Positions 9,347 to 10,755 of a DNA stretch of 44,464 bases are shown one piece after another. The stretch's first letter is position 1, and the number at the start of each line of letters is the position of its first letter. The stretch spans positions 1 to 44,464 of the IMG/VR virus record IMGVR_UViG_2571042862_000006; one strand, written 5' to 3'. Source of the DNA: a virus. Lineage: Duplodnaviria; Heunggongvirae; Uroviricota; Caudoviricetes. Under the pieces are notes generated by a model that had not been told where the DNA came from, ran no database searches, and saw only the letters and a list, made by a program, of their open reading frames with translations. A program made the translations under genes and the position numbers.

Positions 9347-9805
9347 CTATCTCCCGTGATTCAGGAAGTCGATTAGTTCTTCGCGTGTGACGCTGTAAAA
9401 CGTCACGTCATCAACGCCTTTGAAGTATTTCTTGATGGTTCCTACACGCTTAAGGCCAATCATTGCGCAGTACATCTGACCGTGGCGGAATTTGCGTGCA
9501 GCGAACGATGTGACGCACTGAACAGTAGTGTTAGTCAGAATGTATCGCCAGAACGCCAGCCCGATTTCCTTGCTGAAGCCACGAACCTCTGGCAGGTACA
9601 TGGCGTGGCAATCGAATGTCAGCGGCTGAATCTCCTGATAGTAAACAATGCCGCCAAACTGACCGTGCACGTTAACCTCAAAGTAACGGCATTCAGGCTT
9701 GTAGTCGTATCCATCACCGTTGTTGCTCCCGGCAATAATGTCAGGGTGATTTCCGACTGCTTCGATCAGGTCGATGTTTCGCGTTGGTTTGAACTGAATC
9801 ATCAC
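9347..9805 (-). CDS. P22 gp14-like protein by position
   Basis: 152-aa ORF between the tail needle and gp7-like genes, overlapping the needle stop by 4 nt. Confidence 0.55.
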
Positions 9806-10755
9806 TGCTCCGCGATTATCTTGATGGTTGTGGCAGTAAACGCCGCCCCATTTGACTGGATGGTTAACGTACTGCCATTTGTGGCAAGAAAGCCGTCTTT
9901 ATCCACGCTGAAGAACGTAGCTAACAGGATGTTATCGGTTGTTGTCGCCGAGTTGCGACTGCTTACCAGTGTGTCAGGAACAGATCCGGAAAAGGTTAGC
10001 TGCATTGACCTGTTTGCGGTTCCGCTGGGCCACGTCCCGACAATCGACAGCTTGAAGAACAGGGTTTTGTTCTCGTTGAAAACAACCATCTTGTTGTTAT
10101 CAGTATCGAAGAATGGTGCCAACGTCCCGGATGACGGCGTGAGCGTTTTCAGCAGGCTAACAAGGTTGGTCGGCGCTGTTGGAATGGTTACCGATACTCC
10201 TGAGTAAACAACCTCTGATTTCTTGCGCGTGGTGGCATACTCAAGCGCAGATATTCTTGTTGAGTGATCACCAACTGTGCTTTGTAGCGTCGAAATACTT
10301 CCCTCTGCCGCTATGAGCCTGGTATCAAGTGCGTTGATATCGGTTGTATTCTGAGTTATTCGCGCATCATGGTTTGCTAACTCAGATTCATTGGCAGCAA
10401 TTCGCGTCTCGTGATCAGCCAGCTCTGTTTCGGCAGCCGTAATCCTTGTTTCATGATCTGCAAGAGTGCTTTCCGCTGCTGAGATTCTATGTTCATGATT
10501 GATGAGAGTTGCTTCAGCAGTTTCAATTCTGGATTCATGGTCTGCAAGGGTGACATCCTGCTCATCATTCTTCACCTGTGCATCATAAGCCCCCTTCCCT
10601 GCCTCGTGGGCCTTGTTAGCCACATTACCAACATCAGTACCCTGTGCAATAACGTACAGCAGATATGACTGCGAGAAGATATTGCGTGGAAGGATTGATG
10701 TATCGAGCCGCGTAGCCTGGATTATTACCGGCTCATTGAGATTCGAATCAGCCAT
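9802..10755 (-). CDS. Tail needle (P22 gp26-like) with extended C-terminal knob-like domain
   Basis: N-terminus [43 protein letters not shown] matches the P22 gp26 N-terminus; repeated ADHETRI heptad motifs (trimeric coiled coil); start codon overlaps the gp10 stop. The ORF-track upstream extension is rejected. Confidence 0.8.

Follow-up and report, generated by a model that had tools for sequence, protein, structure and literature searches.

A long-shaft tail needle with an Sf6-type knob encoded by a P22-like Escherichia coli prophage

The gene between positions 9802 and 10755 (minus strand) of the window, the 44,464-nucleotide stretch of viral DNA analysed here, is the orthologue of P22 gene 26 and Sf6 gene 9. 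It belongs to a P22-like prophage of E. coli (Lederbergvirus-type) and encodes a tail needle of the long-shaft HS1 subtype, a reading to which we give a probability of about 97%. The boundaries of the gene, the domain architecture of its product, the near-identity of that product to solved structures, its ligand-contact residues and its genomic context were all observed directly in the window. The protein is an ordinary one that has been known and structurally characterised before and is annotated as a matter of routine, and nothing about it is new.

The reading frame starts with an ATG at 10755 and runs for 317 codons up to a TGA at 9804–9802. At each end a single base is shared with the adjoining gene: upstream, the ATG overlaps the TAA that ends the gp10-like gene (TAATG), and downstream, the TGA overlaps the ATG, at 9802, of the DUF2824/gp14-like gene (TGATG). 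The same coding sequence of 954 nucleotides was called by PGAP in a prophage of E. coli EC2257 that is 99.9% identical. The coordinates given in the preliminary description, which had been made from the sequence without database searches, agree with the start and stop codons and with the PGAP call and are exact. A longer, 351-residue version starting from a GTG at 10857 was rejected because the added part lies within the gp10 gene and all homologues, like the PGAP call, begin with MADSNLN. On the plus strand, an open reading frame of 241 codons (9482–10207) lies antisense to both the needle gene and the gp14-like gene; it was taken to be spurious, the two sense genes being strongly supported.

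The needle protein matches NCBI entry WP_032153670.1 (“tail needle knob protein”) exactly, and the cluster to which this entry belongs at 90% identity has 1,430 members. In a search against NCBIfam, no model specific for the needle was found, only generic coiled-coil families, all far below their cut-offs. Copies of the gene with a coverage of at least 80% are present in 164 of the 5,426 complete E. coli genomes searched, and a match of any length is present in 1,082 of them.

The amino-terminal domain (residues 1–69; 10549–10755, minus strand) is the part that would plug the channel of the tail hub. It is 95.7% identical to the same region of HK620 gp26, 91–97% identical to that of the Sf6, HS1 and JEP4 needles and 81% identical to that of P22 gp26. 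In searches of the PDB, residues 1–77 align to HK620 gp26 (5BU5) and residues 1–146 to P22 gp26 (2POH, 3C9I; E about 1e-42); entry 8EAP is also matched by the amino-terminal domain. These alignments, together with a match to phrog_1219 (“tail needle protein”, E 1.5e-58), bear out the gp26-like amino-terminus proposed earlier. The role of the domain as a plug is known from cryo-electron microscopy of Sf6, in which the amino-terminal helical hairpins close the channel of the gp10 hub with a plug of quasi-sixfold symmetry (PMC9728967).

At the other end of the protein, residues 174–317 (144 amino acids; 9805–10236, minus strand) form a knob of the Sf6/HS1 type with a TNF-like jellyroll fold, which would be trimeric. 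The Pfam family PF16532 (Phage_tail_NK, “Sf6-type phage tail needle knob”) is matched with a score of 354.2 bits (cut-off 27; E 1.4e-106), all 175 positions of the profile being covered (1–175), and phrog_1030 (“tail needle knob”) is matched with an E value of 4.6e-135. In the PDB search, residues 165–317 align to the crystallised knobs of HS1 (4K6B, 99% identity, E 1e-89) and Sf6 (3RWN, 98% identity, E 8e-89). Between residues 174 and 317, the protein shares 99.3% of its residues with the HS1 needle and 98.6% with Sf6 gp9. All four residues listed by Leavitt et al. 2013 (PMC3741392) as contacting L-glutamate in the HS1 knob (Glu181, Lys235, Ser283 and Asp285) are present at the same positions, and the Ser266-Arg267-Asn268 triad of the phosphate site, taken from the same list, is complete. 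Mutants of the glutamate site had no phenotype (PMC3741392), and the glutamate-contacting residues are conserved in knob homologues outside the P22-like phages (PMC3741392).

It is chiefly the 99% sequence identity to crystal structures that supports the assignment of the fold, because the knob was modelled with low confidence by AlphaFold run on the single sequence (mean pLDDT per ten-residue block 36–78); the confidence is low for the amino-terminus as well. When this low-confidence model was used as a query in Foldseek, 4K6B and 3RWN were nevertheless the best matches (target-normalised TM-score 0.74, E 8e-19), followed, after the phage knobs, by TNF-family folds, 4-1BBL, EDA-A1, C1q and PRD1 P5. 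This ranking is in line with the published TNF-like jellyroll.

The preliminary description had inferred a knob like that of Sf6, and the Pfam score, the identities and the Foldseek ranking all point the same way. The alignment to knob-bearing needles that it had proposed as a check is gap-free for HS1, and the disordered carboxy-terminus lacking any knob-like fold, which it had named as the contrary outcome, was not what we found, the best Foldseek matches being the two needle knobs. Some of its particulars need amending. The beta-rich carboxy-terminal part is indeed absent from P22, but it comprises 144 residues and not about 110. Nor does it extend the needle, since the different, 93-residue tip of P22 is replaced by it. 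The nearest match is the long-shaft subtype of HS1 (317 amino acids, 16 heptads) and not Sf6 (282 amino acids, 11 heptads).

Between these two domains lies the coiled-coil shaft (residues about 70–173; 10237–10548, minus strand). The register continues without a break from about residue 57 to about residue 175 (rows of seven counted from 57). The a positions 70, 77 and so on to 168 are occupied by 15 consecutive Leu, Ile or Val residues (L, I, L, I, L, I, L, I, L, I, I, L, I, V, I); when the protein was shuffled 20,000 times, no run of 15 at seven-residue spacing arose, and the longest was 9. At the d positions, His and Ala alternate, giving a super-period of 14 residues that is present in five copies between residues 70 and 139. 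After these five units the heptads are less regular, with a final GDHSTRI at residue 162. The motif [AG][DN]H[ESD]xRI is found at residues 71, 99, 113, 127 and 162, with a variant, INHEHRI, at residue 85. AlphaFold predicts one continuous helix for residues 42–174, with a mean pLDDT per ten-residue block of 87–98 between residues 71 and 160.

Five to six ADHETRI heptads had been counted earlier; the count of motifs was right, but each motif marks a 14-residue double heptad. With one motif per 14-residue unit and an unbroken register between 57 and 175, the shaft has about 16 heptads, counted from residue 57, and not five or six. Sixteen heptads have been reported for the HS1 needle and 11 for those of Sf6 and P22 (PMC3741392). 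The 35 extra residues relative to Sf6 would add about 5 nm to the shaft (estimated at 1.48 Å per residue). A recent tandem duplication of DNA was considered as the origin of the shaft and rejected: in a repeat search, the 42-nucleotide units are only 60–74% identical to each other at the DNA level, and Tandem Repeats Finder reported none within the needle gene. It follows that the heptad units are old repeats at the protein level.

The closest relative is the needle of HS1, the prophage of E. coli HS (EcHS_A0316, WP_000785558.1; knob structure 4K6B), which has the same length of 317 amino acids and is 96% identical in a gap-free alignment. The two share the three-domain layout, the 16-heptad shaft and the place in the operon between gp10 and the DUF2824 gene. 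They differ by 13 substitutions, mostly in the amino-terminal domain and the shaft, the only difference in the knob being V219D. The prophages differ in their tailspikes (636 amino acids in HS1, 799 here) and in the small open reading frame upstream of gp4. Sf6 gp9 (282 amino acids; knob structure 3RWN) is 90% identical overall, with 91% in the plug domain, and has the same glutamate contacts; its shaft, however, is shorter by 35 residues (five heptads, missing as 28 + 7), and the aligned part of the shaft is only about 70% identical. The gp26 proteins of P22 and HK620 (233 amino acids; 2POH, 3C9I, 5BU5) have in common with the present needle a homologous hub-binding amino-terminal domain, a trimeric coiled-coil shaft starting from the NDEQDVxLADHExRI motif, the gene position and the role of channel plug. 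Their shafts are shorter, and their tip (residues about 141–233) is another domain, unrelated to the knob in sequence.

Among other phages, the 317-residue needles of JEP4, vB_EcoP-720R6 and Gally are 96–97% identical to the needle described here (JEP4 97%), and the 282-residue form, in which the 28 + 7 shaft residues are missing, is found in Sf6, N7, Louie, Kapi1 and phiKp_30. Knob homologues outside the P22-like group (in T4-like, ViI/Cba120-like, Aeromonas, Edwardsiella and Ralstonia phages) are 35–56% identical over residues about 175–303, but do not have a gp26-type amino-terminal plug domain and lie in another genomic context. In 2013, knob-bearing P22-like needles were known only from phages of Escherichia and Shigella, and the divergence between their knobs was at most 4.9% (PMC3741392). 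We also observe needles with a gp26-type amino-terminus and an Sf6-type knob in the Salmonella P22-like phages S9-5 and ABTNLsp11242; that of S9-5 (positions 301–1164) has 288 amino acids and a knob that is 77% identical. Full-length matches to the needle occur in one Aeromonas phage and one Shewanella phage as well (accessions among MW790496, MK813942 and OR636717).

Within the cluster, three residues of the needle (His50, Asn141 and Asp219) are absent from all 12 other members of 317 amino acids that were examined, and Ile148 is absent from 11 of the 12, the exception being member P0014. Asp219 is also present in the EC2257 prophage. It lies in a hydrophilic stretch of the knob that varies among homologues, DT[V/D/T]NNK, with Thr in a Salmonella homologue; for these reasons, V219D looks like ordinary allelic variation. 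Two cluster members of other lengths were considered as shaft-length variants and rejected as such, one being truncated at its carboxy-terminus and the other having an aberrant amino-terminus. In the former (P0005, 303 amino acids, on 13 contigs), 14 carboxy-terminal residues are missing and the last beta-strand of the knob would be lost; the latter (P0011) has 316 amino acids. They could be real defective alleles or artefacts of assembly or annotation.

The needle gene lies in a late operon with the order coat, gp4, gp10, needle, gp14-like gene, gp7, gp20, an open reading frame at the gp16 position and tailspike, all of them intact. Directly upstream is the gp10-like tail hub gene (“Phage stabilisation protein”; 10755–12173, minus strand; PF11134, E 2.9e-300), the product of which would be the docking partner of the needle, and directly downstream is the gp14-like DUF2824 gene (9347–9802, minus strand; PF11039, E 3e-53). 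Further along, gp7 and gp20 are identified by PF25688 and PF16928, respectively; for the 665-residue product at the gp16 position (5347–7344), no match was found in Pfam. The tailspike has a P22 head-binding domain, the Pfam match (Head_binding) being limited to its first 113 residues. From the small terminase to the tailspike the late operon is uninterrupted, and an integrase is also present in the window.

Among phages, IME10 comes closest to this half of the window: 70% of the first 25 kb align to it with an identity of 96%. At the equivalent position, IME10 carries a needle of 233 amino acids, of the P22/HK620 type. In a Blastn comparison, the segments 8103–9804 and 10526–20272 of the window align to IME10 at 93–96%, and the gap between them is without similarity. 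The similarity ends exactly at 9804, the needle stop codon, and is found again from 10526, at about codon 77 in the conserved LADHExRI motif. As the breaks at 9804 and 10526 enclose only the shaft and knob, this part (residues about 78–317; 9805–10525, minus strand) is a cassette exchanged relative to IME10. The junction lies in a region of high similarity that was also used by Leavitt et al. to construct functional chimeras (PMC3741392), and the exchange is in keeping with a recent arrival of the knob in the P22-like group, as they proposed (PMC3741392).

Similarity to IME10 is also missing from 1169–4843 (a segment that includes most of the tailspike) and from 7129–8102 (the junction of gp16 and gp20). 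Elsewhere in the operon, we observe a perfect hexanucleotide microsatellite (12721–12814) with 15.7 copies of a unit that reads TCTGGC on the plus strand and GCCAGA on the coding strand; it lies between the coat gene and the part of gp4 to which Pfam gives a match. All three minus-strand frames are open across it, and it codes for (EP)n in a small open reading frame (12651–13007) and for (SQ)n in an amino-terminal extension of the gp4 reading frame. The copy number varies, there being only 8 perfect copies at this site in IME10. In HS1 and EC2257, the site is occupied by an unrelated open reading frame of 61–62 amino acids, in EC2257 without the repeat.

How the needle would act can be outlined from what has been published for Sf6, HS1 and P22, from which trimer formation, plugging, release and a kinetic role are transposed here. 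Three chains would associate into one fibre, of which roughly the first 60–70 residues would enter the hexameric gp10 channel of the tail hub as a plug and so retain the packaged DNA. Residues from about 57 to about 175 would form the trimeric coiled-coil, its 16 or so heptads being five more than in Sf6 and P22, and this shaft would carry the knob past the tailspikes. At the distal tip, the jellyroll formed by residues 174–317 would be placed to touch the outer membrane first during infection. Release of the needle would then open the channel for the ejection proteins (the homologues of gp7, gp20 and gp16, encoded just downstream) and subsequently for the DNA. In published work with chimeras, swapping knobs between phages left the host range unchanged, while alterations of the tip slowed the release of K+ (PMC3741392); the knob would thus be expected to set the kinetics of DNA delivery and not the host range.

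This last point bears on a different reading, in which the knob, as a receptor-binding domain, determines the host range, like the adenovirus fibre knob or PRD1 P5, and the needle is an adhesin and not a plug or trigger. The TNF-like fold class is compatible with such a role, the vertex protein P5, 4-1BBL, EDA-A1 and C1q being among the Foldseek matches; the cassette has been swapped as a unit relative to IME10, which is typical of host-interaction modules; and the known range of knob-bearing P22-like phages was restricted to Escherichia and Shigella in 2013. We consider this reading very improbable, given that the chimeras keep their host range while changes to the tip affect K+ release. The knobs are, moreover, nearly invariant among phages with different tailspikes, as illustrated by the knob identity of 99% to HS1 despite the difference in tailspike length. 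There is also little likelihood that the needle gene belongs to a decayed, non-functional prophage remnant. Remnants of this kind are common enough: Leavitt et al. counted more than 100 E. coli genomes with P22-like remnants of a few genes that include an Sf6-type needle gene, and far more complete genomes contain some match to the gene than contain most of it, as the counts given above show. The needle gene of the window is, however, of full length with all functional residues kept, it is embedded in an uninterrupted late operon accompanied by an integrase, and the overlapping stop and start codons are preserved on both of its flanks.

With the needle taken as the intact plug and trigger of a P22-like tail, its particular features might still have been thought to carry a function of their own. 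That V219D alters the kinetics of DNA delivery, or that the shaft, longer by five heptads, is tuned to the unusually long tailspike of 799 amino acids, seems to us most doubtful, and we find nothing in support of either. Were the shaft so tuned, the tip would still extend past the spikes. A general relation in which needle length follows tailspike length was rejected, since HS1 does not fit: it pairs its long-shaft, 317-residue needle with a tailspike of 636 amino acids, about the size of that of Sf6, which has 623 amino acids alongside a needle of 282. The same misfit makes the tuning of the shaft in the present prophage an unfavoured idea.

Publications from 2011 to 2022 have covered the family, structure and distribution of the needle, together with its still only partly understood role in DNA-delivery kinetics, and the significance of the present gene is small. 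It serves as a correct, useful anchor for annotating a P22-like prophage, and it provides an example of two known principles, the modular exchange of the needle tip and the change of shaft length by whole heptads.
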